From the NCBI RefSeq assembly GCF_058153355.1, contig NZ_CM177019.1: a DNA stretch of 64,000 bases, one strand, 5' to 3'. Under the pieces are notes generated by a model. The model was not told where the DNA came from and did no database searches. It saw only the letters and a program-made list of their open reading frames with translations. The position numbers and the translations under genes are program-made. This document shows, piece after piece, positions 1-61,639 of the stretch. Numbering within the stretch: position 1 is the first letter of the stretch; every line of letters starts with the position of its first letter.

Positions 1-3000
1 AGCGCCTTTAACAAACAGAGCATGAGCTGGAAACTGATGACTCTGCTGCCGCAATTGCTGGATCGCGAAGACTTTACCCTGTTGCGGCATTATCTGACTG
101 ACGATAGCGACAAGCGAAAACTGTTCCAGCTTTCCTCTAAAGCGGCGGACCTGTTTGACCAGTATCTGGTCTATCGCCCGGACTGGCTGGCACAGTGGGA
201 AGCCGGGAATCTGGTAGAAGGACTTGGAGAGGCGCAGGCCTGGCAAGCGCCGTTGTGGAAGGCGCTGGTGGAATATACCCATCAACTCGGGCAACCGCGC
301 TGGCACCGCGCCAATCTCTATCAGCGCTTTATCGAAACGCTGGAGTCCGCGACGACCTGCCCGCCGGGGTTACCTTCGCGCGTCTTTATATGCGGTATTT
401 CCGCGTTACCGCCTGTTTATCTCCAGGCGCTACAGGCGCTGGGTAAACATATTGAAATCCATCTCCTGTTTACCAACCCCTGCCGTTATTACTGGGGCGA
501 CATTAAAGATCCTGCTTATCTGGCGAAACTGCTGACTCGCCAGCGCCGACACAGTTTTGAAGATCGCGAATTACCGCTATTTCGCGACAGCGAAAATGCC
601 GGGCAGCTCTTTAACAGCGATGGTGAACAGGATGTCGGCAACCCGCTGCTGGCCTCATGGGGCAAGCTTGGGCGCGACTACATTTATCTCCTTTCTGATC
701 TGGAGAGCAGCCAGGTGCTGGACGCTTTTGTCGATGTGACGCCAGATAACCTGCTGCATAACATTCAGTCTGACATTCTGGAACTGGAGAACCGCGCCGT
801 TGCGGGTGTGAACATCGAAGAGTTTTCCCGTAGCGATAACAAACGCCCTCTTGATCCACTGGATAGCAGTATCACCTTCCACGTTTGCCATAGCCCGCAG
901 CGTGAAGTTGAAGTTTTACACGATCGCTTGCTGGCGATGCTGGAGGAAGACCCGACACTGACTCCGCGCGACATCATCGTGATGGTGGCCGACATCGACA
1001 GCTACAGTCCGTTTATTCAGGCTGTGTTTGGTAGCGCACCTGCGGATCGTTACCTGCCTTACGCCATTTCCGACCGTCGGGCGCGGCAGTCGCATCCGGT
1101 ACTGGAAGCGTTTATCAGCCTGTTATCACTGCCTGACAGCCGATTTGTGTCGGAAGACGTGCTGGCATTACTGGATGTGCCGGTGCTGGCGGCGCGGTTT
1201 GACATCACCGAAGAAGGGCTGCGTTATTTACGTCAGTGGGTCAACGAGTCCGGCATTCGTTGGGGGATAGATGACGATAACGTTCGCGAGCTGGAACTTC
1301 CCGCCACCGGTCAACACACCTGGCGGTTTGGCCTGACGCGCATGTTGCTGGGCTACGCGATGGAAAGCGCGCAGGGCGAGTGGCAATCGGTTCTGCCTTA
1401 TGATGAATCGAGCGGCTTAATTGCAGAACTGGTGGGGCATCTGGCTTCACTGCTAATGCAGCTAAACATCTGGCGTCGCGGGCTGGCGCAGGAGCGTCCG
1501 CTGGAAGAGTGGTTGCCGGTTTGTCGCGATATGCTCAACGCCTTCTTCCTGCCGGATGCGGAAACCGAAGCGGCGATGACGCTGATCGAACAACAATGGC
1601 AGGCGATTATCGCCGAAGGTTTAGGTGCGCAGTATGGCGACGCGGTGCCGTTGTCACTATTGCGTGATGAACTGGCACAACGTCTGGATCAGGAACGTAT
1701 CAGCCAGCGTTTTCTCGCCGGGCCGGTTAACATTTGTACTCTGATGCCAATGCGTTCCATCCCATTCAGAGTGGTTTGCCTGCTGGGAATGAACGACGGC
1801 GTTTACCCACGCCAGCTTGCGCCATTGGGCTTTGACCTGATGAGTCAGAAACCGAAACGCGGCGACCGTAGCCGTCGCGATGACGACCGCTATCTGTTCC
1901 TGGAAGCGTTAATTTCCGCGCAGCAAAAACTTTATATCAGCTATATCGGGCGTTCCATTCAGGATAACAGTGAACGTTTCCCGTCGGTACTGGTGCAGGA
2001 ACTGATCGACTACATCGGGCAAAGCCATTATCTACCGGGCGATGAAGCGCTCAATTGTGATGAAAGCGAGGCGAGGGTAAAAGCGCATCTTACTTGCCTC
2101 CATACCCGGATGCCGTTTGACCCGCAAAACTACCAGCCCGGTAACTTACAAAGCTATGCGCGCGAGTGGCTACCCGCGGCCAGTCAGGCAGGTAAGGCGC
2201 ATTCTGAATTTGTTCAGCCGCTGCCGTTTACCTTGCCGGAAACCGTGCCGCTGGAGACGCTACAACGATTCTGGGCGCATCCGGTGCGGGCGTTTTTCCA
2301 GATGCGCTTGCAGGTGAACTTCCGTACCGAAGATAGCGAAATTCCCGACACCGAACCTTTTATTCTTGAAGGGCTTAGTCGTTATCAAATCAACCAGCAG
2401 TTATTGAATGCTCTGGTCGAGCAAGATGATGCCGATCGCTTATTCCGCCGCTTCCGGGCGGCAGGGGATTTACCGTATGGCGCTTTTGGTGAAATTTTCT
2501 GGGAAACACAGTGCCAGGAGATGCAGCAGCTTGCCGACAGAGTCATTGCCTGTCGCCAACCGGGGCAAAGTATGGAAATTGATCTCGCCTGCAACGGTGT
2601 GCAAATAACGGGTTGGTTGCCGCAGGTGCAGCCGGATGGCCTGTTACGCTGGCGTCCCTCTTTATTAAGTGTGGCGCAGGGAATGCAACTTTGGCTGGAA
2701 CACCTTGTCTACTGTGCCAGCGGTGGTAATGGTGAAAGTCGCCTTTTTCTACGCAAAGACGGCGAGTGGCGTTTTCCGCCGCTTGCAGCCGAACAGGCTT
2801 TACATTACCTCTCAGAACTGATTGAGGGGTATCGTGAAGGGATGTCCACGCCGCTGCTGGTGTTACCTGAAAGTGGCGGCGCGTGGCTAAAAACCTGTTA
2901 TGACGCGCAAAACGATGCCATGCTGGATGACGATTCCACGTTGCAAAAAGCCCGTACGAAATTCCTTCAGGCTTACGAAGGCAACATGATGGTGCGTGGC

Positions 3001-3120
3001 GAAGGTGATGATATCTGGTATCAACGGCTCTGGCGGCAATTAACACCAGAGACAATGGAAGCCATCGTTGAACAGTCGCAACGTTTCCTGTTACCGCTGT
3101 TTCGCTTTAATCAGTCATGA
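1..3120 (+). CDS. recC: RecBCD exonuclease V gamma subunit RecC, 3-prime portion; gene start lies upstream of the window
   Basis: ORF 22..3120 (1032 aa) stays open to position 1; translation matches the RecC C-terminal region as recalled; conserved position upstream of ptrA-recB-recD. Confidence 0.93.
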   Translation, partial: SAFNKQSMSWKLMTLLPQLLDREDFTLLRHYLTDDSDKRKLFQLSSKAADLFDQYLVYRPDWLAQWEAGNLVEGLGEAQAWQAPLWKALVEYTHQLGQPRWHRANLYQRFIETLESATTCPPGLPSRVFICGISALPPVYLQALQALGKHIEIHLLFTNPCRYYWGDIKDPAYLAKLLTRQRRHSFEDRELPLFRDSENAGQLFNSDGEQDVGNPLLASWGKLGRDYIYLLSDLESSQVLDAFVDVTPDNLLHNIQSDILELENRAVAGVNIEEFSRSDNKRPLDPLDSSITFHVCHSPQREVEVLHDRLLAMLEEDPTLTPRDIIVMVADIDSYSPFIQAVFGSAPADRYLPYAISDRRARQSHPVLEAFISLLSLPDSRFVSEDVLALLDVPVLAARFDITEEGLRYLRQWVNESGIRWGIDDDNVRELELPATGQHTWRFGLTRMLLGYAMESAQGEWQSVLPYDESSGLIAELVGHLASLLMQLNIWRRGLAQERPLEEWLPVCRDMLNAFFLPDAETEAAMTLIEQQWQAIIAEGLGAQYGDAVPLSLLRDELAQRLDQERISQRFLAGPVNICTLMPMRSIPFRVVCLLGMNDGVYPRQLAPLGFDLMSQKPKRGDRSRRDDDRYLFLEALISAQQKLYISYIGRSIQDNSERFPSVLVQELIDYIGQSHYLPGDEALNCDESEARVKAHLTCLHTRMPFDPQNYQPGNLQSYAREWLPAASQAGKAHSEFVQPLPFTLPETVPLETLQRFWAHPVRAFFQMRLQVNFRTEDSEIPDTEPFILEGLSRYQINQQLLNALVEQDDADRLFRRFRAAGDLPYGAFGEIFWETQCQEMQQLADRVIACRQPGQSMEIDLACNGVQITGWLPQVQPDGLLRWRPSLLSVAQGMQLWLEHLVYCASGGNGESRLFLRKDGEWRFPPLAAEQALHYLSELIEGYREGMSTPLLVLPESGGAWLKTCYDAQNDAMLDDDSTLQKARTKFLQAYEGNMMVRGEGDDIWYQRLWRQLTPETMEAIVEQSQRFLLPLFRFNQS

Positions 3121-3295
3121 GTGCTGTATAAAAATTGCGCAATTCATCTGCTTACTTTATGATGCGCACCAGTCACGGACTGATGGTTAAATAGACATAG
3201 GCTGACTCGTGCAGCACAAGATTAAATTCTGCCGGATAATTTTCGTTAACGTATTGAATCTGGTTAGAAAATAAAGTTGATAATGAGGTCCGTGA

Positions 3296-6219
3296 ATGCC
3301 CCGCAGCACCTGGTTCAAAGCATTATTGTTGTTTGTTGCCCTTTGGGCACCCTTAAGTCAGGCAGAAACGGGATGGCAGCCGATTCAGGAAACCATCCGT
3401 AAAAGTGATAAAGATAACCGCCAGTATCAGGCTATACGTCTGGATAACGGTATGGTGGTTTTGCTGGTTTCTGACCCGCAGGCGGTTAAATCGCTCTCGG
3501 CGCTGGTGGTGCCCGTTGGGTCGCTGGAAGATCCCGAGGCATACCAGGGGCTGGCACATTACCTTGAACATATGAGTCTGATGGGTTCGAAAAAGTACCC
3601 GCAGGCTGACAGTCTGGCTGAATACCTCAAAATGCACGGCGGCAGCCACAATGCCAGCACGGCACCGTATCGCACGGCTTTCTATCTGGAAGTTGAGAAC
3701 GACGCCTTACCCGGTGCGGTAGACCGCCTGGCCGATGCTATTGCTGAACCCTTGCTCGACAAGAAATACGCCGAACGTGAGCGTAATGCGGTGAACGCTG
3801 AATTAACCATGGCGCGTACGCGTGATGGGATGCGCATGGCACAGGTCAGCGCAGAAACCATTAACCCGGCACACCCAGGTTCAAAGTTTTCTGGTGGTAA
3901 CCTCGAAACTTTAAGCGATAAACCCGGCAATCCGGTACAGCAGGCGCTGAAAGATTTCCACGAGAAATATTACTCTGCCAATCTGATGAAGGCGGTTATC
4001 TATAGCAAGAAGCCGCTACCGGAGCTGGCGAAGATGGCTGCTGATACTTTCGGTCGCGTGCCGAACAAAGAGAGCAAAAAACCGGAAATCACTGTGCCGG
4101 TAGTCACCGACGCGCAAAAGGGCATTATCATTCATTACGTCCCGGCGCTGCCGCGTAAAGTTCTGCGCGTTGAGTTTCGCATCGATAACAATTCAGCGAA
4201 GTTCCGTAGTAAAACGGATGAATTGATTACCTATCTGATTGGTAATCGCAGCCCAGGTACACTTTCTGACTGGCTGCAAAAGCAGGGATTAGTTGAGGGC
4301 ATTAGCGCCAATTCCGATCCTATCGTCAACGGCAACAGCGGCGTATTAGCGATCTCTGCGTCTTTAACCGATAAAGGTCTGGCGAATCGCGATCAGGTTG
4401 TGGCGGCCATTTTTAGCTACCTCAATCTGTTACGCGAAAAAGGGATTGATAAACAATACTTCGATGAACTGGCGAATGTGCTGGATATCGACTTTCGTTA
4501 TCCGTCAATCACCCGTGATATGGATTACGTCGAATGGCTGGCAGATACCATGATTCGCGTTCCTGTTGAGCATACGCTGGATGCAGTCAATATTGCCGAT
4601 CGGTACGATGCTAAAGCAGTAAAAGAACGCCTGGCGATGATGACGCCGCAGAATGCGCGTATCTGGTATATCAGCCCGAAAGAGCCGCATAACAAAACGG
4701 CTTATTTTGTCGATGCTCCGTATCAGGTCGATAAAATCAGCCCACAAACTTTCGCTGACTGGCAGAAAAAAGCCGCCCACAAACTTTCGCTGACTGGCAG
4801 AAAAAAGCCGCCAATATTGCGCTCTCCTTACCGGAGCTTAACCCTTATATTCCTGACGATTTCTCGCTGATGAAGTCAGAGAAGAAATACGACCATCCAG
4901 AGTTGATTGTGGATGAGGCGAATCTGCGCGTGGTGTATGCGCCGAGCCGTTATTTTGCCAGCGAGCCTAAAGCCGATGTCAGCCTGATTTTGCGTAACCC
5001 GAAAGCCATGGACAGCGCCCGCAATCAGGTGATGTTTGCGCTTAATGATTATCTTGCCGGACTGGCGCTTGATCAGTTAAGCAACCAGGCGTCGGTTGGT
5101 GGCATAAGTTTTTCCACCAATGCTAACAACGGCCTTATGGTTAATGCCAATGGTTACACCCAGCGCCTGCCGCAGCTGTTCCAGGCTCTGCTGGAGGGCT
5201 ACTTTAGCTATACCGCTACGGAAGAGCAGCTTGAGCAGGCGAAGTCCTGGTATAACCAGATGATGGATTCCGCAGAAAAGGGCAAAGCGTTCGAGCAGGC
5301 GATTATGCCCGCGCAGATGCTCTCGCAAGTGCCGTACTTCTCGCGAGATGAACGGCGCAAAATTTTGCCTTCAATCACTTTGAAAGAGGTGCTGGCCTAT
5401 CGCGACGCCTTAAAATCAGGGGCTCGACCAGAGTTTATGGTTATTGGCAACATGACCGAAGCCCAGGCAACAAAGCTGGCACGCGATGTGCAAAAACAGT
5501 TGGGCGCTGATGGTTCGGAGTGGTGTCGTAACAAAGATGTCGTGGTCGATAAAAAACAATCCGTCATCTTTGAAAAAGCCGGTAACAGCACCGACTCCGC
5601 ACTGGCAGCGGTATTTGTACCGACTGGCTACGATGAATACACCAGCTCAGCCTATAGCTCTCTGCTGGGGCAGATCGTACAGCCGTGGTTCTACAATCAG
5701 TTGCGTACCGAAGAACAGTTGGGCTATGCCGTGTTTGCGTTTCCAATGAGCGTGGGACGTCAGTGGGGCATGGGCTTCCTGTTGCAAAGCAATGATAAAC
5801 AGCCTTCATTCTTGTGGGAGCGTTACAAGGCGTTTTTCCCAACCGCAGAGGCAAAATTGCGGACGATGAAGCCAGAAGAGTTTGCGCAAATCCAGCAGGC
5901 GGTAATAACCCAGATGCTGCAGGCACCGCAAACGCTCGGCGAAGAAGCATCGAAGTTAAGTAAAGATTTCGATCGCGGCAATATGCGCTTCGATTCGCGT
6001 GATAAAATCGTGGCCCAGATAAAACTGCTGACGCCGCAAAAACTTGCTGATTTCTTCCATCAGGCGGTGGTCGAGCCGCAAGGCATGGCTATTCTGTCGC
6101 AGATTTCCGGCAGCCAGAACGGGAAAGCCGAATATGTGCATCCTGAAGGCTGGAAAGTGTGGGAGAACGTCAGCGCGTTGCAGCAAACAATGCCCCTGAT
6201 GAGTGAAAAGAATGAGTGA
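3296..6219 (+). pseudogene. ptrA: Protease III (pitrilysin) gene disrupted by a 35-bp tandem duplication; reads as two ORFs 3296..4870 and 4870..6219
   Basis: N-terminal ORF has a signal peptide and the HxxEH zinc motif (HYLEHM); it terminates 20 codons after the duplication; the second ORF continues in another frame; removing one 35-bp copy gives a single 962-aa ORF. Confidence 0.85.
4741..4810 (+). repeat. Perfect tandem duplication, 2 x 35 bp (cccacaaactttcgctgactggcagaaaaaagccg), inside ptrA
   Basis: Positions 4741-4775 and 4776-4810 are identical; the length is not a multiple of 3. Confidence 0.95.
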
Positions 6220-9200
6220 TGTCGCCGAGACACTAGATCCTTTGCGCTTGCCCTTACAGGGCGAGCGCCTGATTGAAGCCTCTGCCGGCACAGGCAAAAC
6301 CTTTACGATTGCGGCGCTCTATTTGCGCCTGTTACTTGGACTAGGCGGTTCTGCCGCCTTTCCCCGCCCGCTGACCGTTGAAGAACTGCTGGTGGTGACC
6401 TTTACCGAGGCTGCCACGGCAGAATTGCGCGGTCGTATCCGTAGCAATATCCACGAGTTGCGCATCGCCTGTCTGCGTGAAACCACCGACAATCCACTGT
6501 ACGAACGCCTGCTGGAAGAGATCGACGATAAAGCGCAAGCCGCGCAGTGGTTGTTGTTAGCCGAACGGCAGATGGATGAAGCGGCAGTCTTTACTATTCA
6601 CGGTTTTTGCCAGCGCATGCTCAACTTGAATGCCTTTGAATCCGGCATGCTGTTTGAGCAGCAGCTGATTGAAGATGAGTCTCTGCTACGCTACCAGGCC
6701 TGCGCCGATTTCTGGCGTCGCCACTGCTACCCGCTGCCGCGTGAAATTGCCCAGGTGGTCTTTGAAACCTGGAAAGGGCCGCAGGCGTTGCTGCGCGATA
6801 TTAATCGTTATCTGCAAGGCGAAGCACCGGTTATCAAAGCACCGCCGCCCGATGATGAAACGCTGGCTTCCCGCCACGCGCAAATTGTGGCGCGTATTGA
6901 TACGGTAAAACAGCAGTGGCGCGACGCAGTGGGTGAACTGGATGCGCTGATCGAATCTTCTGGTATTGATCGACGCAAGTTTAACCGTAGCAATCAGGCT
7001 AAATGGATCGAGAAGATCAGTGCCTGGGCAGAAGAAGAGACCAACAGTTATCAGTTACCGGAGTCGCTGGAAAAATTCTCTCAGCGTTTCTTAGAAGATC
7101 GCACGAAAGCCGGGGGGGAAACCCCGCGACATCCACTGTTTGAGGCGATCGATCAACTGCTTGCAGAACCATTGTCGATCCGTGATCTGGTGATCACCCG
7201 CGCATTGGCTGAGATCCGCGAAACAGTAGCGCGTGAAAAACGCCGCCGTGGCGAATTGGGTTTTGATGACATGTTAAGTCGGCTCGATTCCGCGCTGCGT
7301 AGCGAAAGCGGCGAGGTGTTGGCAGCGGCGATCCGTACGCGATTCCCGGTGGCAATGATTGATGAATTTCAGGATACCGACCCCCAGCAGTACCGAATAT
7401 TTCGCCGTATCTGGCACCATCAACCGGAAACTGCATTGTTGCTGATTGGCGACCCGAAACAGGCTATATATGCATTCCGTGGAGCGGATATCTTCACTTA
7501 TATGAAGGCGCGTAATGAAGTTCACGCGCACTACACCTTAGACACCAACTGGCGCTCAGCACCTGGAATGGTGAACAGCGTGAATAAGCTTTTCAGCCAG
7601 ACTGATGACGCGTTCATGTTTCGCGAAATACCATTTATTCCAGTGAAATCAGCCGGCAAAAATCAGGCGTTACGTTTTGTATTTAAAGGTGAAACGCAGC
7701 CTGCGATGAAAATGTGGCTGATGGAAGGCGAAAGCTGCGGCGTTGGCGATTATCAAAGTACCATGGCGCAGGTATGTGCTGCGCAAATCCGCGACTGGCT
7801 ACAAGCCGGACAGCGGGGCGAAGCGTTGCTGATGAACGGCGACGACGCGCGTCCGGTGCGTGCTTCGGACATCAGTGTGCTGGTGCGCAGCCGCCAGGAG
7901 GCCGCTCAGGTGCGCGATGCCTTAACGCTGCTGGAAATCCCTTCCGTTTACCTTTCGAACCGCGACAGTGTTTTTGAAACTCTGGAAGCGCAGGAGATGC
8001 TTTGGCTGTTGCAGGCGGTGATGACACCAGAACGTGAGAACACCCTGCGCAGTGCGCTGGCAACGTCAATGATGGGGCTGAATGCGCTGGATATTGAAAC
8101 GCTGAATAATGACGAACATGCGTGGGATGCGGTAGTCGAAGAGTTCGATGGTTATCGGCAAATCTGGCGCAAACGTGGCGTTATGCCGATGCTGCGGGCG
8201 CTGATGTCGGCGCGTAACATTGCAGAAAACTTGCTGGCAACAGCAGGCGGTGAGCGGCGTCTTACCGATATCTTGCATATCAGCGAATTGCTACAAGAAG
8301 CCGGAACGCAGCTGGAAAGTGAACATGCGCTGGTACGCTGGTTATCGCAACATATCCTCGAGCCAGACAGTAATGCCTCCAGCCAACAAATGCGTCTCGA
8401 AAGTGATAAACATCTGGTGCAGATTGTCACGATCCACAAATCGAAAGGGCTGGAATATCCATTGGTCTGGCTGCCGTTTATCACCAATTTCCGCGTCCAG
8501 GATCAGGCGTTTTATCACGATCGCCACTCGTTTGAGGCTGTTCTGGATCTTAATGCTGCGCCAGAAAGCGTCGACCTCGCGGAGGCCGAACGTCTGGCGG
8601 AAGATCTGCGTTTGCTTTACGTGGCGCTGACGCGTTCGGTTTGGCATTGCAGTCTCGGCGTTGCACCGCTGGTGCGCCGTCGTGGCGATAAAAAAGGTGA
8701 CACCGACGTCCACCAAAGTGCGCTCGGGCGTTTGCTGCAAAAAGGGGAACCGCAAGATGCGGCAGGGCTTCGCACCTGTATTGAAGCGTTATGCGATGAT
8801 GATATTGCCTGGCAAACGGCACAAACTGGTGATAACCAGCCCTGGCAGGTTAATGATGCTTTAACTGCAGAACTGAATGCGAGGACGCTACAACGATTGC
8901 CCGGCGATAACTGGCGTGTCACCAGCTACTCCGGTTTGCAGCAGCGTGGTCACGGTATCGCTCAGGATCTGATGCCACGGCTGGATGTTGATGCCGCAGG
9001 CGTGGTCAGCGTCGTTGAAGAACCGACGTTAACACCGCATCAGTTCCCGCGTGGTGCGTCACCAGGGACGTTTTTGCACAGTTTGTTTGAAGACCTCGAT
9101 TTTACCCAGCCGGTTGACCCGAACTGGGTACAGGAAAAACTGGAACTCGGCGGCTTTGAATCGCAGTGGGAACCAGTGTTGACCGAGTGGATCACGGCTG

Positions 9201-9754
9201 TCCTCCAGGCACCTCTCAATGAAACGGGTGTTAGCCTGAATCAGCTTTCCGACCGCGATAAACAGGTGGAGATGGAGTTTTACCTGCCGATTAGTGAACC
9301 GCTCATCGCCAGCCAGCTTGATGCACTAATTCGCCAGTTTGATCCGCTATCCGCTGGCTGCCCGCCGCTGGAGTTCATGCAGGTACGCGGCATGTTAAAA
9401 GGCTTTATCGACCTGGTATTCCGCCACGAAGGGCGTTATTACCTGCTCGACTATAAATCCAACTGGCTGGGTGAAGACAGTTCGGCTTATACCCAACAGG
9501 CTATGGCAGCGGCGATGCAGGCACACCGCTATGATCTGCAATATCAGCTTTATACCCTGGCGCTGCATCGTTATCTGCGCCATCGCATTGCTGATTACGA
9601 CTATGATCGTCACTTTGGCGGCGTTATCTATCTGTTCCTGCGTGGCGTTGATAAAGAACATCCGCAACAAGGGATTTACACAACCCGACCCAACGCCGGG
9701 TTGATTGACCTGATGGATGAGATGTTTGCCGGTATGACCCTGGAGGAGGCGTAA
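6212..9754 (+). CDS. recB: RecBCD helicase/nuclease beta subunit RecB
   Basis: 1180 aa from [10 protein letters not shown]; Walker A motif GTGKTF; start overlaps the ptrA stop; UvrD-like helicase plus C-terminal nuclease region. Confidence 0.95.
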
Positions 9755-11580
9755 TGAAATTGCAAAAGCAATTACTGGAAGCTGTGGAGCACAAACAGCT
9801 ACGCCCGCTGGATGTGCAATTTGCCCTGACCGTGGCGGGAGATGAACATCCTGCCGTCACCCTCGCGGCAGCCCTGTTAAGCCACGACGCCGGGGAAGGG
9901 CATGTCTGTTTACCGCTCTCACGACTGGAAAATAACGAGGAGTCACATCCGCTGTTAGCAACCTGCGTCAGCGAAATTGGTGAGTTACAAAATTGGGAAG
10001 AATGCTTGCTGGCTTCACAAGCGGTCAGCCGGGGAGATGAACCAACGCCGATGATCCTCTGTGGTGATCGTCTTTATTTGAATCGCATGTGGTGTAACGA
10101 GCGCACAGTGGCACGCTTTTTCAACGAAGTGAATCATGCCATTGAGGTTGATGAAGCTCTACTGGCGCAAACCCTGGACAAACTTTTTCCAGTAAGCGAT
10201 GAAATTAACTGGCAAAAAGTGGCGGCGGCAGTGGCGCTGACGCGGCGGATCTCGGTGATTTCCGGCGGCCCTGGCACCGGTAAAACGACCACCGTAGCGA
10301 AGTTGCTGGCAGCGTTAATTCAAATGGCAGACGGCGAACGCTGCCGTATCCGTCTGGCTGCACCAACGGGTAAAGCTGCCGCGCGCTTAACCGAATCTCT
10401 CGGCAAGGCTTTGCGCCAGTTACCGCTGACCGATGAACAAAAGAAACGCATTCCGGAAGATGCCAGCACTTTGCACCGATTGCTGGGTGCGCAGCCGGGT
10501 AGCCAGCGTTTACGTCATCATGCCGGTAACCCGCTGCATCTTGATGTGCTGGTGGTAGATGAAGCGTCAATGATCGATCTGCCTATGATGTCGAGACTGA
10601 TCGACGCCTTGCCCGATCATGCGCGAGTGATCTTTCTCGGCGATCGTGATCAACTGGCCTCGGTTGAGGCTGGGGCTGTGCTGGGCGATATCTGCGCTTA
10701 TGCCAACGCGGGCTTTACCGCCGAGCGTGCCGGGCAGTTGAGCCGCCTGACGGGAACTCACGTTCCGTCAGGAACTGGCACAGAAGCGGCATCTTTGCGC
10801 GACAGTCTCTGCCTGCTGCAAAAAAGCTATCGTTTCGGCAGCGATTCTGGCATTGGTCAGTTAGCTGCGGCGATCAACCGTGGTGATAAAACGGCAGTGA
10901 AAACCGTTTTTCAGCAGGATTTTACTGATATCGAAAAACGGCTTTTACAGAGCGGCGAAGACTATATTGCGATGCTTGAGGAGGCTCTTGCGGGTTACGG
11001 GCGTTATCTGGATCTGCTGCAAGCGCGTGCCGAGCCGGATTTAATCATTCAGGCGTTCAATGAATACCAGCTTTTGTGCGCCCTGCGGGAAGGGCCGTTT
11101 GGCGTGGCTGGATTGAATGAGCGAATTGAGCAGTTTATGCAACAGAAGCGCAAAATTCATCGTCATCCGCACTCACGCTGGTACGAAGGCCGGCCGGTAA
11201 TGATTGCCCGCAATGACAGCGCGCTTGGGTTGTTTAATGGTGATATCGGCATTGCGCTGGATCGTGGGCAGGGGACGCGCGTCTGGTTTGCGATGCCGGA
11301 TGGCAATATTAAGTCTGTGCAACCGAGCCGCCTGCCAGAACACGAAACCACGTGGGCGATGACGGTACATAAATCGCAGGGATCGGAGTTTGACCATGCG
11401 GCGTTGATTTTACCGAGCCAACGCACGCCAGTTGTAACGCGAGAGCTGGTTTACACTGCGGTGACCCGCGCGCGTCGCCGTCTGTCGTTGTATGCCGATG
11501 AGCGCATATTAAGTGCGGCAATCGCCACTCGTACTGAGCGGCGCAGTGGTCTGGCGGCGTTGTTTAGTTCGCGGGAATAA
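9754..11580 (+). CDS. recD: RecBCD helicase alpha subunit RecD
   Basis: 608 aa; Walker A motif GGPGTGKTT; start overlaps the recB stop. Confidence 0.95.
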
Positions 11581-19100: not shown

Positions 19101-19170
19101 TTTTAGAATATAAAACAGTAACCGGTCACGCCATCTTTTGGGGTGGCGTTCATTGATGTGAGTGTCAGCT

Positions 19171-20118
19171 ATGAAAAACGTTCTGGTCACCGTTCCCAGC
19201 TTTTCAGCGCGTTGTGTTTCTGCCAGCAAGCTGCTAAGAGAAAATCATTTTAACCTTATTATCAAGAATAATGTGGAGCATCTGGTTAAATCAGAATCCA
19301 CAGTATTACGAGAATCTATTTGCGCAGTCATTGCCGGAAAAGATTGTTATCAAGCGGATACGTTATCGCGACTACCAGGAGTGAAAATAATATCGAGATT
19401 CGGGACAGGGATTGATAATATTGATCTTCATACGGCTCGACAATCAGGTATTGTGGTCAATAATGCTGTTGGGATTAATTCAAATGCAGTCGCGGAATTT
19501 ATCATTGGTCTTATTTTTGCGAGCATGAGAAATATCCCCGGTAGCTATCATGCAATGCAAAATGGTTATTGGGGCGAGTCGCATGGCTGCGAGTTACAAG
19601 GTAAACGTATTGGCCTGCTTGGCTATGGCAATATTGGCAAAACACTGGCGAAAAGGTTATCTGGTTTTGATGTTGAGCTTTTAGCTTTTGACAAACAACC
19701 CGATTTCCAGGCCGCAGGCAAAGATGGAGTTCAGTTCGTATCAATTGAAGATATCTTTATGCAGTCTCATGTCATCATCGTTCTTTTGCCATTTTCTCCG
19801 GAGCTGGAGAACTTCATTAGTCATAAATATTTGTCGATGATGCGCAATGGTGCTCTTATCATCAACGCCGCAAGGGGAAAGTTGCTGGATGAGGGTGCTT
19901 TACTTCAGGTAATTGAAGAACGAAATGTTTTTGCAGCACTGGATGTGTTTAGCTCTGAACCGCTAGCGCAATTTAGCCCATTGCTACATGCCAGGAATAT
20001 CATTACAACGCCGCATATTGCGGCCGCCACCGTTGAGTCATACCAGCAAACCGGGATATACGTTGCCAGGTCGATAATAGATTTCTTTGCAGGAAGGGAG
20101 ATAAAAAACGTGCTGTGA
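19171..20118 (+). CDS. D-isomer-specific 2-hydroxyacid dehydrogenase family protein (NAD-binding)
   Basis: Rossmann motif GLLGYGNIGKTLAKRL; family hallmarks of catalytic Arg, Glu and His appear present; ORF track offers a GTG start at 19162. Confidence 0.8.
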   Translation: MKNVLVTVPSFSARCVSASKLLRENHFNLIIKNNVEHLVKSESTVLRESICAVIAGKDCYQADTLSRLPGVKIISRFGTGIDNIDLHTARQSGIVVNNAVGINSNAVAEFIIGLIFASMRNIPGSYHAMQNGYWGESHGCELQGKRIGLLGYGNIGKTLAKRLSGFDVELLAFDKQPDFQAAGKDGVQFVSIEDIFMQSHVIIVLLPFSPELENFISHKYLSMMRNGALIINAARGKLLDEGALLQVIEERNVFAALDVFSSEPLAQFSPLLHARNIITTPHIAAATVESYQQTGIYVARSIIDFFAGREIKNVL

Positions 20119-28721: not shown

Positions 28722-30140
28722 TCACACTTCCTCTATAAATTCAGGTTCAGTTTGTGGGTAGAAATAACGGTACTGATAATGAATCTGCGCGCGAGCTTCT
28801 TCCGGGCTGTTAAATTCCCCTACGCCATACCAACCGAACAGCGCAGCTCCTGCGACGGTCGTTTCGGCGTCGTCGAGAACTTTTACCGGAATATCAAGCA
28901 TATTGGCTTTAATCTGATTCCACAATGTGTTGCGACTTCCTCCACCGACTAACAATAATTCAGAGGCTTTAAAGTGCCCGATTTTTTCCAGCATCTGTAG
29001 ATTGCGCTGTAATTGCGCGGTTAACCCTTCCAGCGCCGCGCGATAGAAATGCCCCCGCGTGGTATTAAGCGTCACTCCTTGCCAGCCAGCGTTCTGACAC
29101 GACAATAAATCACACTGCATTTTCACGCCATCCGCGCCAGGCGCGATCAGACGAGCCTCTTCAATCAACATTTGCCAGGGCGTTTCAGTAGTCCAGAACA
29201 GTTTTCTCACCCATTCCAGCACGCCGGATGCCAGCCATTGCATACCGGGGTTATACAATCCTGCCTGGCTATCCAGTTCGCAGGTGGAACCGGCGTACTG
29301 ACTTAGCAGTGAAGTATCAACATGCGTACTGCGGACCATTAAAATTTCCCAGGTACCGGAAGAGAGCACGGGTTCATTTTGTTCGGCACCAGCACCAAAA
29401 AGGGCGAACTGGGTATCATGACCTGCAGAAATTACCGGTATGCCAACGGGTAAGCCGAGCATTGCTGCGGCGCTGTTCTGTAGCGTACCTATCTGTTCAC
29501 CCGCTTCCACCAGACGAGGGAAGAGTCGGCGTGGAATACCGGTGGCTTGTAAAATTTGCGGACTGAAATCGCGTTGCTGGATATCCAGCATCTGGCTGGT
29601 TCCGGCCATGGTGATATCAGTAGTCAATTCGCCGGTTAAACGGTGGTTAATCAGCGACGAAATAAAGAGCCAGGCGTGCGCGCGTTCCAGCAGTTGTGGA
29701 TGATTTTCTTTCAACCACACCAATTTATATAACGTATTGAAACTAAAGGCTCCGACGCCAGAAATAGCCTGCAACTGCTGTGCGGAGATCAACCGTTCAA
29801 TATTGTCCATTACCGCTGCTGTTCGCGGACATTTCCAGCTAATGATCGGATAGAGCAAATCGCCTTGCTTATCTACCAGAGCGCCATCCACACCAAAGGT
29901 GGTGACGGCGATACCGCGGATGTGGCATTCAGTCAGTTCACTATTGATTTGCCGACAGCAATCAGCAAAGCGTTGCAAAATGGCGTCTAAAGACCACTGG
30001 TGCCAGGTGTTGTTTTCCATCGCGATATCGCTGGCATTAGGCGTTGAGGCGCGGGCAACAATTTTTCCCTGCCGATTAACCGCGATGGCCCTGACATTGG
30101 TTGCGCCACAGTCGAGTACCAGGATAACTTCTTGTTTCAT
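28722..30140 (-). CDS. fucK: L-fuculokinase FucK
   Basis: 472 aa from [15 protein letters not shown] (FGGY kinase family); ORF track extends 10 codons upstream. Confidence 0.92.
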
Positions 30141-36664: not shown

Positions 36665-38032
36665 TTAATCGCAGGCAACGATCTTCATCGCCAGGCCACC
36701 ACGAGAGGTTTCGCGGTACTTGGCATTCATATCTTTACCTGTTTCGTACATGGTTTCGATAACTTTATCGAGGCAGACACGAGGTTCGCTGGTACGGCGT
36801 AGCGCCATACGTGCAGCGTTCACCGCTTTTACTGCCGCAATGGCGTTACGCTCAATGCACGGTACCTGAACTTGTCCAGCAACCGGGTCACAAGTCAGAC
36901 CGAGGTTGTGTTCCATGGCGATTTCCGCCGCGATGCACACCTGCGCCGGGCTTGCGCCTAACAGTTCTGCCAGACCAGCTGCCGCCATAGAGCACGCCAC
37001 GCCAACTTCACCCTGGCAACCCACTTCGGCACCAGAAATCGAGGCGTTCATCTTATAAAGAGAACCAATCGCGCTTGCTACCAGCAGGTAACGAGCCAGT
37101 GAGTTAGCGTTCACTTCGCGGATAAACTTGTCGTAGTACGCCAGCACTGCCGGGATAATCCCGCACGCACCGTTAGTCGGCGCAGTCACCACGCGACCGC
37201 CCGCAGCGTTCTCTTCGTTCACTGCCAGCGCAAACATGTTGATCCAGTCAACAACTGCCATCGGATCAGTGGTGGTTTTATCCTGGCTAACCAGCATCCG
37301 GCGCAGTGCCGCAGCGCGGCGTGGAACGCGCAGTTTGCCTGGCAACACGCCTTCGGTGGCAATACCGCGCTCAATACCGCCACGCATTACTTCCCAGACG
37401 TTCGCCAGGTGCTGTTCCAGTTCTTCTTTGCTGTGCAGCGCCAGCTCGTTTTTCATCATCAGACCAGAGAGTGACAGCCCGGTCTCCTGACAATGTTTTT
37501 GAAGATCGGCAGCGGAACTGTACGGATAAGGAACTTCAACCGGTGCGCTATCCTGCTGGCCAAAATGTTCTTCATCAACGATAAAGCCACCGCCGATAGA
37601 GTAGTAAGTCTGGCTGTAAACGACTTTATCGCCCGCCAGCGCGGTAATGCGCATGCCGTTTTCATGCAGAGAAAGGTTATCGGCATGGAAGTTCATGCAC
37701 TGATCAACCGGGAACTCCACTTCGTGCTGACCGTTTGCCAACATCAGGCGACCATGAGTATTCACATCCTGAATAAAACCAGGGATGGAATCGATATCCA
37801 CGGTATCCGGCAGGTTACCCGCCAGACCCATAATTATGGCGATATCTGTGTGGTGGCCTTTACCGGTCAGAGAGAGCGAGCCGTACACGTCAACCACCAC
37901 GCGGGTCACGTCTTTAAGCAGGTTACGGGCAATCAGATCGTCGGTAAATTGCTTACCCGCTTTCATTGGTCCAACGGTATGAGAACTGGAAGGGCCAATG
38001 CCGATTTTGAAAATATCGAATACGCTAATCAT
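36665..38032 (-). CDS. sdaB: L-serine dehydratase 2
   Basis: 455 aa; Fe-S L-serine dehydratase family. Confidence 0.93.
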   Translation of the reverse strand: MISVFDIFKIGIGPSSSHTVGPMKAGKQFTDDLIARNLLKDVTRVVVDVYGSLSLTGKGHHTDIAIIMGLAGNLPDTVDIDSIPGFIQDVNTHGRLMLANGQHEVEFPVDQCMNFHADNLSLHENGMRITALAGDKVVYSQTYYSIGGGFIVDEEHFGQQDSAPVEVPYPYSSAADLQKHCQETGLSLSGLMMKNELALHSKEELEQHLANVWEVMRGGIERGIATEGVLPGKLRVPRRAAALRRMLVSQDKTTTDPMAVVDWINMFALAVNEENAAGGRVVTAPTNGACGIIPAVLAYYDKFIREVNANSLARYLLVASAIGSLYKMNASISGAEVGCQGEVGVACSMAAAGLAELLGASPAQVCIAAEIAMEHNLGLTCDPVAGQVQVPCIERNAIAAVKAVNAARMALRRTSEPRVCLDKVIETMYETGKDMNAKYRETSRGGLAMKIVACD

Positions 38033-38089
38033 AGGAAATACATCGCGTTAAAACGGAGGAAGCGCCGCCCGAAAGCGGCGCGAAAGGAC

Positions 38090-39379
38090 TTAGCTGAACA
38101 GAGAGTAGAAGATTGCGGAGATTGCAATCAGACCCATCACGACAACGAATACGTTGCTGATGTGACCGCTGTACTTACGCATTGCCGGTACTTTCTGGAT
38201 TGCGTACATCGGCATCAGGAACAGGATCATCGCGATGATTGGGCCGCCCAGGGTTTCAATCATACCCAGGATGCTCGGGTTCAGGGTGGCAACAATCCAG
38301 GTCGTTACCAGCATGAACAGCGCAGTGATACGGTTCAGCTTGTTGATTTCGATAGACTTACCTTTACCACGCAGAGATTTAATCACCATACCGTTGAAGC
38401 CTTCACGTGCACCCAGGTAGTGGCCGAGGAAGGATTTGGTGATAGCGATAATCGCGATAATCGGAGCCATCCACGCGATGATCGGCGCGTTAAAGTGGTT
38501 AGCCAGGTAAGACAGAATAGAGATGTTCTGCTCTTTAGCCGCAGCCAGGTCTGCCGGAGTCAGGCTCAGTACGCAGCTGAAGACGAAGAACATTACGGTC
38601 AGCACCATCATGATGTGTGCGAATGCCAGGATCTTCGAGCATTTCTGTTCTGCCATATCGCCGTACTCTTCACGCTTCGCAACGGCGAAAGAAGAGATGA
38701 TCGGAGAGTGGTTGAACGAGAACACCATGACCGGAATCGCCAGCCACAGGGTCATCCACAGACCGTTGCCGGTTGCCGATGCAGTGTCCAGAGACAGCGT
38801 TTCCAGTGCTGCGCCGTTCCACTGAGGGATCAGGTACAGAGCCAGCAGCATCAGTACACCAACAAACGGGAATACCAGAATACTCATCGCCTTCACGATC
38901 ATCTGCTCACCGAAGCGAACAATGGTCATCATACCCACAATCAGGATCAGAGACAGAATCGCACGCGGCGGCGGCGTCATACCCAGCTGGTGAGACATGA
39001 AGCTTTCAACCGTGTTGGTGATTGCCACACTGTAAACCAGCAGGATCGGGTAGATAGCAAAGAAGTAGAGCAGGGTAATCAGTTTACCTGCACCAATACC
39101 AAAGTGTTCTTCTACAACCTCGGTGATGTCTTCGCCTGGGTTTTTACCAGACAGTACGAAGCGAGTCAGGCCGCGGTGAGCAAAAAACGTCATCGGGAAC
39201 GCAAGGATAGCCATGATGATCAGCGGGATCATACCGCCAACACCGGCGTTGATTGGCAGGAACAGCACGCCCGCGCCGATTGCCGTGCCGTAAAGGCCCA
39301 GCATCCACATGGTGTCTGTCTTGCGCCATGCACTACGTGAGTCTTTCGACACAATCGTGCTGGTTTGAGTCGTTTCCAT
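38090..39379 (-). CDS. sdaC: Serine:H+ symporter SdaC
   Basis: 429 aa from [13 protein letters not shown]; HAAAP family transporter. Confidence 0.93.
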
Positions 39380-56002: not shown

Positions 56003-56097
56003 TCTTACATAGCTGGATATGGCGTCAGCCGTATCCAGCGATATCTTTTACTCGAAGGTATTACACCTGACAGACCCGCAATTTTCAGGACATTCTA

Positions 56098-60140: not shown

Positions 60141-60181
60141 GTCTGACTTTATCTGATTTAAAAATGCCAGCCTTCGGGCTG

Positions 60182-61607
60182 TAATGCCGATCAGTTAAGG
60201 ATCAGTTGACCGATCCAGTGGCTGTGTAAGAATCCGGAAACGCTCACTTGTTTCCGGATTTTTTTATGCACATTGGACAGGCTCTTGATCTGGTATCCCG
60301 TTACGATTCTCTGCGTAACCCACTGACTTCTCTGGGGGATTACCTCGACCCCGAACTCATCTCTCGTTGCCTTGCCGAATCAGGTACTGTAACGCTACGC
60401 AAGCGCCGTCTTCCCCTCGAAATGATGGTCTGGTGTATTGTTGGCATGGCGCTTGAGCGTAAAGAACCTCTTCACCAGATTGTGAATCGCCTGGACATCA
60501 TGCTGCCGGGCAATCGCCCCTTCGTTGCCCCCAGTGCCGTTATTCAGGCCCGCCAGCGCCTGGGAAGTGAGGCTGTCCGCCGCGTGTTCACGAAAACAGC
60601 GCAGCTCTGGCATAACGCCACGCCGCATCCGCACTGGTGCGGCCTGACCCTGCTGGCCATCGATGGTGTGTTCTGGCGCACACCGGATACACCAGAGAAC
60701 GATGCAGCCTTCCCCCGCCAGACACATGCCGGGAACCCGGCGCTCTACCCGCAGGTCAAAATGGTCTGCCAGATGGAACTGACCAGCCATCTGCTGACGG
60801 CTGCAGCCTTCGGCACGATGAAGAACAGCGAAAATGAGCTTGCTGAGCAACTTATAGAACAAACCGGCGATAACACTCTGACGTTAATGGATAAAGGTTA
60901 TTACTCACTGGGACTGTTAAATGCCTGGAGCCTGGCGGGAGAACACCGCCACTGGATGATACCTCTCAGAAAGGGAGCGCAATATGAAGAGATCAGAAAA
61001 CTGGGTAAAGGCGATCATCTGGTGAAGCTGAAAACCAGCCCGCAGGCACGAAAAAAGTGGCCGGGACTGGGAAATGAAGTGACAGCCCGCCTGCTGACCG
61101 TGACGCGCAAAGGAAAAGTCTGCCATCTGCTGACGTCGATGACGGACGCCATGCGCTTCCCCGGAGGAGAAATGGCGGATCTGTACAGTCATCGCTGGGA
61201 AATCGAACTGGGATACAGGGAGATAAAACAGACGATGCAACTGAGCAGGCTGACGCTGAGAAGTAAAAAGCCGGAGCTTGTGGAGCAAGAGCTGTGGGGT
61301 GTCTTACTGGCTTATAATCTGGTGAGATATCAGATGATTAAAATGGCGGAACATCTGAAAGGTTACTGGCCGAATCAACTGAGTTTCTCAGAATCATGCG
61401 GAATGGTGATGAGAATGCTGATGACATTGCAGGGCGCTTCACCGGGACGTATACCGGAGCTGATGCGCGATCTTGCAAGTATGGGACAACTTGTGAAATT
61501 ACCGACAAGAAGGGAAAGGGCCTTCCCGAGAGTGGTAAAGGAGAGGCCCTGGAAATACCCCACAGCCCCGAAAAAGAGCCAGTCAGTTGCTTAACTGACT
61601 GGCATTA
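60182..61607 (+). mobile_element. IS4 insertion sequence, complete (1426 bp) with terminal inverted repeats
   Basis: Left end taatgccgatcagttaagg and right end ccttaactgactggcatta are inverted repeats; flanked by direct repeats cagccttcgggctg at 60168-60181 and 61608-61621; joining the flanks gives aaaaatgccagccttcgggctggcatttttt. Confidence 0.9.
60266..61594 (+). CDS. insG: IS4 transposase (DDE family)
   Basis: 442 aa from [16 protein letters not shown]; enclosed by the IS4 terminal repeats. Confidence 0.9.
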
Positions 61608-61639
61608 CAGCCTTCGGGCTGGCATTTTTTATGGCTGAG

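Follow-up and report, generated by a model that had tools for sequence, protein, structure and literature searches.

A 35-bp tandem duplication probably inactivates ptrA in a single E. coli isolate

The ptrA locus and the 35-bp repeat

Pitrilysin (protease III), a zinc protease of the M16A type that resides in the periplasm, is encoded by ptrA, and this gene was analysed within a 64-kb stretch of E. coli DNA, here called the window. The gene lies on the plus strand together with its neighbours in the order recC–ptrA–recB–recD, a synteny that agrees with the annotation of strain 2020CK-00188. The upstream neighbour recC (22..3120) belongs to a separate operon and is represented by its 3′ part, the start of the gene being located upstream of the window; the full 1122-aa recC is present in the genome L013. 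The genes recB (6212..9754, 1180 aa) and recD (9754..11580, 608 aa) are intact, and recD is the last gene of the ptrA–recB–recD operon (PMC12342828, PMC2586629). The ATG of recB at 6212 and the ptrA stop codon at 6217–6219 give an overlap of 8 nt; the overlap as such had been noted in an earlier reading of this DNA that was made from the sequence only. The own Shine-Dalgarno sequence of recB is weak (−2.5 kcal/mol).

Within ptrA, positions 4741–4775 (CCCACAAACTTTCGCTGACTGGCAGAAAAAAGCCG) are repeated at 4776–4810 as a perfect match, arranged head-to-tail and without a spacer. This exact duplication, already recognized in the sequence-only reading, was borne out by direct comparison of both copies. 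Copy 1 (4741..4775, plus strand) is the ancestral single-copy sequence and covers about codons 482–494 of PtrA. Copy 2 (4776..4810, plus strand) is the inserted copy and moves the downstream frame by +2. Tandem Repeats Finder describes the array with a period of 35, 2.3 copies and a score of 146, and the runner-up array within the 64 kb scores 53. Besides the ptrA repeat, no perfect tandem duplication whose period lies between 15 and 200 was found across the window. According to our arithmetic, about 64000 × 4^-35, or 5e-17, perfect adjacent 35-mers are expected by chance in 64 kb. The identity at period 35 spans 4740–4812, and the unit is thus bordered by a 3-bp microhomology, GCC, which lies at the left border at 4740..4742 (plus strand) and recurs at 4775–4777 and 4810–4812. 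The ancestral allele reads GCC-N32-GCC, and the same arrangement is seen in the single-copy relatives. Microhomology of at least 3 bp is expected by chance in about 5% of arbitrary duplications (our arithmetic), and the GCC triplet is regarded as weak evidence for a microhomology-mediated origin. Neither a DNA hairpin nor a quasi-palindrome favouring slippage was found at the repeat (z = 0.3 and 0.8), and a scan of the duplication junction revealed no newly made promoter or terminator.

The deletion of one copy from the sequence restores a single ORF of 962 aa, just as the sequence-only reading had anticipated. The product of this one-copy ORF is near-identical to the protease III structure 1Q2L, with which it aligns over residues 24–962 (2096 bits, E = 0), and it is likewise comparable to the insulin-degrading enzyme (IDE). 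Pfam identifies the domains Peptidase_M16 (54–191), M16_C (216–395) and M16_M (400–675), followed in the C-terminal part by a further M16_C (681–857) and by PqqF-like_C_4 (778–875). The zinc-binding motif HXXEH is present as HYLEH. The restored PtrA thus shows the four domains, the HXXEH motif and the hinge loop of the M16A clamshell proteases, whose hinge comprises ~30 aa (PMC12731061). Residues P501–P508 of PtrA align to residues 525–532 of IDE, and the hinge residue F530 of IDE is equivalent to Y506. Homology places Ala494 within a hinge loop of roughly 26 residues that joins the catalytic N-half (domains 1–2) to the C-half (domains 3–4). Unlike the intact M16A members, the ptrA gene studied here is interrupted in this hinge, which makes it a pseudogene or a split gene. 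Instead of one ORF of ~962 aa, as is typical of pitrilysin, two ORFs of 524 and 449 aa are present, and tblastn aligns two frames.

Distribution of the duplication and evidence for its reality

The sequence-only reading had called for a comparison with other isolates, and near-identical relatives proved to be single-copy. L006 (GCA_043012465.1) and L008 (SRR28786219) carry one copy, and over 9.5–11.5 kb only 1 SNP separates them from the window. The single-copy allele is found with identical sequence in these two genomes and in the strains 2020CK-00188 and 2017-02-2CC. Over a further 41 kb the relatives are 1–4 SNPs away from the window per locus of 12.7–20.8 kb, plus one 1-bp indel. The repeat number does not vary as it would at a phase-variable locus: one copy is present in every other genome examined. 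The junction 42-mer (4755–4796) was detected in 0 of 5,426 complete E. coli genomes, and a junction 32-mer had no match in the GTDB representative genomes or in the JGI metagenomes. When the duplication-specific tail peptide was searched in a protein set of 5.8 billion clusters, the matches were limited to short, noisy fragments of PtrA that lack the tail. The 524-aa and 449-aa fragments gave no exact match. An exact search for truncated PtrA products in a cluster collection was uninformative, as this collection holds no partial products: even the positive control, the 478-aa product called on L009, was absent. Judged by the sequences compared, the 35-bp duplication is private to one E. coli isolate and recent.

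An independent view of the junction was obtained from Logan, which is a k=31 graph. In Logan all 31-mers in the contigs of an accession are distinct, and the graph needs k-mers that are seen at least twice (PMC12424806). The 31-mers starting at 4740–4747 are repeated at 4775–4782, and unitig ends were thus predicted beforehand at 4769 and 4783. In the accession SRR31441161, contig 59 ends at window position 4769 and contig 204 begins at 4783, which matches the prediction. These contigs of 4,769 and 6,944 bp are 100% identical to the window, with 0 differences. The Logan contigs of the single-copy strains L004, L007 and L008 run unbroken across the site. A contig-join error is therefore unlikely. 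If the repeat had been a product of assembly, the junction would be missing from the independent graph; the contigs break as predicted instead. A join caused by k-mer overlap was rejected: further tandem duplications are absent, and the breaks in the independent graph coincide with the borders that had been predicted. The evidence for the junction consists of k=31 contig ends rather than raw reads, and such a graph is blind to the copy number (2 or 3) and to the allele fraction, since a mixture of wild type and duplication adds no new k-mers. In methodological terms, the precise positions at which k=31 Logan contigs end can substitute for read-level evidence of a short tandem duplication.

The sequence-only reading had offered two explanations, a recent slippage or duplication event and an assembly error. 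The relatives, the absence of the junction elsewhere and the Logan contigs favour the first over the second, and the duplication is probably real. A technical artefact is considered unlikely, whether it stems from joined contig ends or overlapping k-mers, from faulty polishing, from chimeric molecules in the library or PCR, or from a mutation carried by a minority of the culture. Such an artefact would fit the occurrence of the duplication in one genome only, and a sub-population or a recurrent chimera would break k=31 contigs likewise (PMC12424806). SRR31441161 is possibly also the run behind the window. If the two are the same data, their agreement excludes a join error of the assembler, but leaves room for an artefact of the library or of PCR and for a mutation acquired in culture. 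However, two different assemblies concur on the exact borders, and no further tandem duplication or indel error is seen in the 64 kb. The 43 other reference genes that were compared all have their full length and no gaps, and the window is free of indels relative to its relatives except at a fucK deletion that the relatives carry. Furthermore, the sequence of ptrA is unique and offers no repeat at which a contig could break, and the GCC microhomology is the trace expected of biological slippage.

Reading frames and predicted products of ptrA

Since 35 is not a multiple of three, ptrA is frameshifted after Ala494. The 5′ fragment (3296..4870, plus strand, 524 codons) codes for the signal peptide and for the catalytic M16 domain with its HYLEH motif, as well as for domain 2. 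Its 524-aa product comprises the native residues 1–494 followed by 30 out-of-frame residues. Two premature stop codons, TGA TGA, lie in the shifted frame at 4868..4873 (plus strand), and the first of them overlaps the ATG at 4870–4872 as TGATG. The TGA at 4868–4870 is the 20th codon past copy 2, which is where the sequence-only reading had the upstream frame end; the remainder of PtrA in another frame from ATG 4870 was confirmed as well. This 3′ fragment (4870..6219, plus strand) encodes 449 aa, corresponding to the native Met514–Glu962 with domains 3–4. It begins with MKSEKKYDHPE... and has no signal peptide. No Shine-Dalgarno sequence was found before ATG 4870 (duplex energy +0.3 kcal/mol). 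Of the earlier suggestion that ptrA could still yield two fragments, the geometry is thus right, with the TGATG overlap, while the restart lacks a Shine-Dalgarno sequence and the C-fragment a signal peptide. The annotation of this genome should describe ptrA as a gene whose frame is broken by a 35-bp duplication, not as two genes.

Most ribosomes are expected to produce an exported N-half bearing 30 junk residues and to stop at TGA 4868. A few may re-initiate at the overlapping ATG 4870, which would lead to a cytoplasmic C-half. As the C-half has no signal peptide, the two halves would reside in different compartments, and the C-fragment could not rejoin the exported N-half. We predict that protease III activity is essentially lost. 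The ATG at 4870 is not a compensatory restart codon: the Met514 codon is present in the intact ptrA of 2017-02-2CC and LR-28 and in near-identical single-copy relatives, and it is hence older than the duplication.

Copy 2 contains the heptamer A_AAA_AAG at 4801..4807 (plus strand), which, like the position of the break in the hinge, goes beyond what the sequence-only reading had described. Frame arithmetic and the translation '...TGRKKPP...' place it in the zero frame of the mutant (AGA AAA AAG). A −1 slip at this site enters the native ptrA frame, which is open from 4759 to 6219, and would give a PtrA of 974 aa with a 12-aa insert (HKLSLTGRKKAA). The site therefore has the X_XXY_YYZ form in the zero frame together with an open −1 frame. 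The slipperiness of A_AAA_AAG has been documented (PMC4066793, PMC10861913). The site resembles that of dnaX (PMC4344849, PMC4066793, PMC10861913) in the identical heptamer, its correct phase and an open −1 frame that encodes the remainder of the genuine protein. It differs from the dnaX type in having neither an upstream SD-like element, none being evident on direct reading of the sequence, nor a stable downstream stem-loop: the search for a strong stimulator gave only a 5-bp hairpin at a distance of 13 nt (−5.5 kcal/mol, z = −0.9). Unlike a conserved programmed site, the in-phase heptamer exists only through the private duplication. One systematic study found that heptamers without stimulators reach at most ~10 times a background of 0.055% (PMC4066793). 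Perhaps 0.1 to a few percent of the ribosomes could yield a PtrA of full length whose hinge carries 12 additional residues. The duplication allele may consequently be slightly leaky, and the heptamer would represent low-level, non-programmed suppression at best. The allele offers a clean test case of such suppression at A_AAA_AAG.

Mutations in the gene of protease III, such as ptr3 and ptr-32::Cm, have been used in laboratory strains for protein production. In those alleles, too, protease III is lost through a lesion within ptr, directly upstream of recB. They differ from the present case in that they are laboratory alleles, whereas the ptrA duplication is spontaneous, occurs in a sequenced isolate and is another type of lesion.

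Origin of the allele and its possible effect on recB

We propose that ptrA has probably been inactivated through the frameshift caused by a real, very recent and strain-private microhomology-mediated tandem duplication (MTD). While the DNA was being replicated, a new strand with GCC at its end would have re-paired with the identical GCC located 35 nt upstream, through slippage or template switching, after which the intervening 35 nt would have been copied twice. The locus shows exact copies, microhomology at the borders, and the single-copy ancestral allele in the closest relatives. It is comparable with the frameshifting MTDs of S. pombe ssp1, which also consist of short, exact head-to-tail copies with a few bases of microhomology (PMC8639346); as in ssp1, the duplication in ptrA shifts the frame and would inactivate the gene. 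The perfect copies of MTDs allow precise reversion (PMC8639346), and the ptrA copies are perfect too. In contrast to the ssp1 examples, the microhomology in ptrA is just 3 bp long, and the reversion is predicted. MTDs were detected ~20 times less often in E. coli than in S. pombe (PMC8639346). Short duplications of this type are reversible (PMC8639346, PMC7145654) and are lost far faster than they are gained (PMC8639346). The two perfect copies would be a substrate for RecA-independent deletion, and by analogy the ptrA allele is probably reversible.

The genes ptrA, recB and recD form one operon in which ptrA contains the ribosome-binding site of recB, and events at the ribosome-binding site of ptrA affect how RecB is translated (PMC12342828). 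In the mutant, poor translation of the ~1.35 kb of mRNA that precedes recB could reduce the expression of recB and recD, by loss of translational coupling and by Rho-dependent polarity. Between 4870 and 6212, rut-like windows rich in C and poor in G are only mild, with a C/G ratio of at most 1.5. A polar effect of the duplication on recB–recD is plausible, and the effect on recB suggested in the sequence-only reading fits the published operon structure (PMC12342828). The isolate may serve as a natural probe of whether the synthesis of RecB and RecD depends on ptrA being translated, which PMC12342828 does not settle.

The same operon structure, the weak Shine-Dalgarno sequence of recB and the reversion that far outpaces the formation of such duplications (PMC8639346) could be taken together as signs of a selected, reversible switch. 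In this switch protease III would be turned off and RecBCD dosage lowered by polarity or lost coupling, until precise loss of a copy resets both. We consider this highly improbable: the allele is a singleton without recurrence in the 5,426 genomes or in the relatives, the copy number is constant between isolates, and it is simpler to assume that a dispensable protease has been lost neutrally. From the older literature, ptr mutants are not known to have a growth phenotype. A leaky version of the switch, in which −1 slippage partially and copy loss fully rescues the gene while protease III is off and RecBCD dosage down, is less credible still; if it were true, the allele would be a natural one that directly tests the translational coupling of RecB to ptrA. 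It is scarcely conceivable that the N-half and a restarted C-half reassemble into a functional two-chain, M16B-like enzyme, since the break in a natural hinge, the TGATG overlap and the M16B relatives that function as two separate chains of ~50 kDa (PMC12731061) are set against the different compartments of the two halves, the unassisted start at ATG 4870 and the junk tail of the N-half. We thus return to the recent tandem duplication, an ordinary, strain-private, pseudogenising mutation in the gene of a dispensable protease, which matters little in itself.

A SNP in the promoter region at 3154 was also considered as a compensatory change. This is unsupported, as both alleles occur in other E. 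coli. The window and its relatives differ by roughly 1 SNP per 5–10 kb anyway.

The 35-bp duplication in ptrA

The ptrA gene (3296-6219), encoding protease III (pitrilysin), is preceded by recC, which ends at 3120, and is followed by recB (6212-9754) and, 3′ of it, recD (9754-11580); argA lies on the other strand relative to these four genes. Within ptrA, the 35-bp unit CCCACAAACTTTCGCTGACTGGCAGAAAAAAGCCG at 4741-4775 is repeated identically at 4776-4810. Tandem Repeats Finder describes the array with a period of 35, 2.3 copies and a score of 146, the runner-up array in the window scoring 53. When the 64 kb were scanned for exact tandem duplications (periods 15-200), this 35-mer was the sole one; by our arithmetic, chance alone would place about 5e-17 perfect adjacent 35-mers in a sequence of this length. 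Deletion of one copy yields a single 962-aa ORF, which carries the M16A domain set and whose residues 24-962 match the E. coli protease III structure 1Q2L.

With both copies present, native residues 1-494 are encoded by the first ORF (3296-4870), which then adds 30 out-of-frame residues, HKLSLTGRKKPPILRSPYRSLTLIFLTISR, before ending at TGA 4868-4870; a second TGA follows directly. The native frame resumes at ATG 4870 (Met514), which overlaps the premature stop as TGATG, and runs to 6219 (449 aa). The sequence-only reading had described the exact repeat, the single 962-aa ORF left on removal of one copy, the end of the upstream frame 20 codons on, the continuation from ATG 4870 in another frame and the overlap of recB with the ptrA stop, and all of this was confirmed; the recB overlap is 8 nt, from ATG 6212.

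The period-35 identity extends over 4740-4812, giving the unit GCC at both borders; the ancestral allele is therefore reconstructed as GCC-N32-GCC. We propose that slipped mispairing or template switching on the 3-bp GCC microhomology led to the 35 nt being copied twice, because the GCC pair is 35 nt apart, the unit is exact and no hairpin was found near the duplication (z = 0.3 and 0.8). Such a mutation belongs to the class of microhomology-mediated tandem duplications (PMC8639346). Taken alone, the 3-bp microhomology is weak evidence, as chance would give an equally long match in about 5% of arbitrary duplications.

Authenticity and distribution of the duplicated allele

The duplication had been regarded as either a recent event or an assembly error, and comparison with other isolates of the lineage had been suggested. 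Relatives were identified by an exact look-up of the RecB protein, which returned six contigs. Those from GCA_043012465.1 (NCBI) and SRR28786219 (Logan, a set of independent k=31 assemblies of sequencing runs) each differ from the window by one SNP, at 3154, over 11.5 kb and 9.5 kb, respectively. Both contain a single copy of the 35-mer and an intact ptrA of 962 aa. Among further pieces of these genomes, loci of 12.7-20.8 kb carry 1-4 SNPs each, and there is one 1-bp indel, at which the window state is intact. The single copy in relatives about 99.98% identical indicates that the duplication postdates the split from them.

A third near-identical RecB match, Logan contig SRR31441161_204, agrees with the window at every base over 6,944 bp; it begins at 4783 and so does not cross the duplication. 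In the k=31 de Bruijn graph behind the Logan contigs, each 31-mer is kept once per accession, and pieces below 150 bp are dropped (PMC12424806). With the duplication, the 31-mers that begin at 4740-4747 are computed to recur at 4775-4782 and to collapse into a 38-bp node that has two entries and two exits, so that the left-flank unitig would end at 4769 and the right-flank unitig would start at 4783. The start at 4783 was seen before this prediction; the left contig was then predicted to carry a 491-residue truncated ptrA product. An exact look-up of the 491-aa truncated PtrA returned one contig, SRR31441161_59, which ends at 4769 and matches the window at all 4,769 shared bases, including A at 3154. 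For the single-copy strains L004, L007 and L008 (the last being SRR28786219), the Logan contigs cross the site unbroken. The contig ends, located where predicted, thus indicate that the junction k-mers occur at least twice in the reads of a window-identical isolate, in a graph that does not separate two from three copies or give an allele fraction.

Two assemblers, whose assemblies may share one read set, agree on the duplication borders. A technical artefact is improbable given this agreement, and the break of the contigs as predicted speaks against the assembly error considered earlier. Sloppy assembly is also disfavoured, because the 43 other reference genes compared are without exception full-length and free of gaps, and the window holds no second tandem duplication. 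Probably, the duplication is a genuine, strain-private mutation of an ordinary type that inactivates ptrA, and the recent event of the sequence-only reading is favoured by the single-copy relatives and the Logan contig ends.

The single-copy sequence is present in 5,424 of 5,426 complete E. coli genomes, and the 40 records listed all span 516 bases, not 551. The junction-specific 42-mer between copies 1 and 2 was found in none of the 5,426 genomes, and the junction was absent from GTDB (one genome per species) and from JGI metagenome contigs. Searches of large protein collections with both ptrA fragment proteins and a peptide with the duplication-specific tail gave nothing relevant. The first 20 kb of the window are about 99% identical to the best complete E. 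coli genomes; for 20-45 kb the best matches reach 98.3-98.9%, and the two weakest among the records listed 97.1%. The lineage therefore seems to be sparsely sampled.

The SNP at 3154 (window A, relatives G) is the only one that separates the window from GCA_043012465.1 and SRR28786219 across recC-ptrA-recB-recD. It lies in the spacer of the ptrA-recBD promoter, 4 nt upstream of the likely -10 hexamer TATGAT (3158-3163). As both alleles occur in other E. coli strains, it is probably an ordinary polymorphism, and at the background SNP density one such change is unremarkable; a compensatory role for it was considered and dropped. The fucK gene (28725-30140, minus strand) is intact and full-length in the window; in the closest relatives, GCA_043012465.1 and GCA_015332025.1 (loci L010 and L011), it has a 1-bp deletion at window position 29996 and is not called as a gene. 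Thus, different members of the lineage have lost different genes.

Predicted consequences for protease III and RecBD

PtrA residues P501-P508 align to residues 525-532 of insulin-degrading enzyme (IDE), within the hinge loop that we take to span approximately 516-541, and Y506 corresponds to IDE F530. F530 is a hinge residue (PMC12731061). By this alignment, the point of frame loss (Ala494) and the possible restart (Met514) both fall in the predicted hinge that links the catalytic N-half to the C-half. The N-fragment retains the signal peptide and the HXXEH motif and lacks half of the clamshell; M16 enzymes require both halves (PMC12731061). A signal peptide is missing from the C-fragment, and no Shine-Dalgarno sequence was found before ATG 4870 (anti-SD duplex energy +0.3 kcal/mol; ptrA, -6.3; recD, -12.1). 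For these reasons protease III function is likely to be lost, and a working two-chain enzyme is unlikely to form from the fragments.

At 4872, codon 514 carries an Ile-to-Met change (ATT to ATG), rare in E. coli, which supplies the restart ATG over the premature stop; the exact 55-mer with the G allele occurs in 2 of 5,426 complete genomes. A compensatory role of Met514 was rejected, as two unrelated complete genomes and the single-copy relatives have this ATG in an intact ptrA.

Because the 35-bp insertion is two bases longer than a multiple of 3, the A-run in copy 2 is decoded as AGA AAA AAG. This brings A_AAA_AAG (4801-4807), overlooked in the sequence-only reading, into phase in the mutant frame. 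Among the -1 heptamers known in E. coli, it ranks as the most slippery (PMC4066793, PMC4344849, PMC10861913). The native frame is open from 4759, and a -1 shift at the heptamer re-enters it; such a slip would give a 974-aa PtrA with HKLSLTGRKKAA inserted in the hinge, and may rescue the ptrA frame. Slippage is expected only at a basal rate, because neither an SD-like nor a stable hairpin stimulator was found around the heptamer. One systematic study reports at most about 10 times a 0.055% background (PMC4066793), and the work summarised in PMC10861913 includes -1 slippage above 1%. The re-phased heptamer is one of two small points of interest, the second being the position of the duplication directly upstream of recB.

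In PMC12342828, ptrA-recB-recD is described as a single operon driven by a promoter 5′ of ptrA, with the recB ribosome-binding site placed within ptrA and translational coupling proposed. The SD of recB itself is weak (-2.5 kcal/mol). With translation ending 1.35 kb before recB, the frameshift could reduce RecB and RecD through loss of coupling and Rho polarity. C-rich, G-poor windows between the premature stop and recB are only mild, and a scan found no promoter-like site near recB.

Other features of the window

In E. coli 2020CK-00188, the reference for gene order, mazE and mazF lie between relA and mazG. They are absent at 56003-56097, between the relA end (56002) and the mazG start (56098), and tblastn found neither anywhere in the window. 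A 615-codon ORF (37493-39340, plus strand) lies antisense to sdaB and sdaC and is most likely open by chance. The 2-hydroxyacid/phosphoglycerate dehydrogenase-family gene at 19162-20118 (plus strand, 318 aa) is intact and is annotated as frameshifted in 2020CK-00188. Relative to this reference, a 1.4-kb insertion (60182-61607) is located between eno and a TPM-domain gene. Its ORF (60248-61594, plus strand) encodes an IS4-family transposase (NF033592, 304 bits), and the element ends in imperfect inverted repeats, with the 14-bp direct repeat CAGCCTTCGGGCTG on either side at 60168-60181 and 61608-61621.
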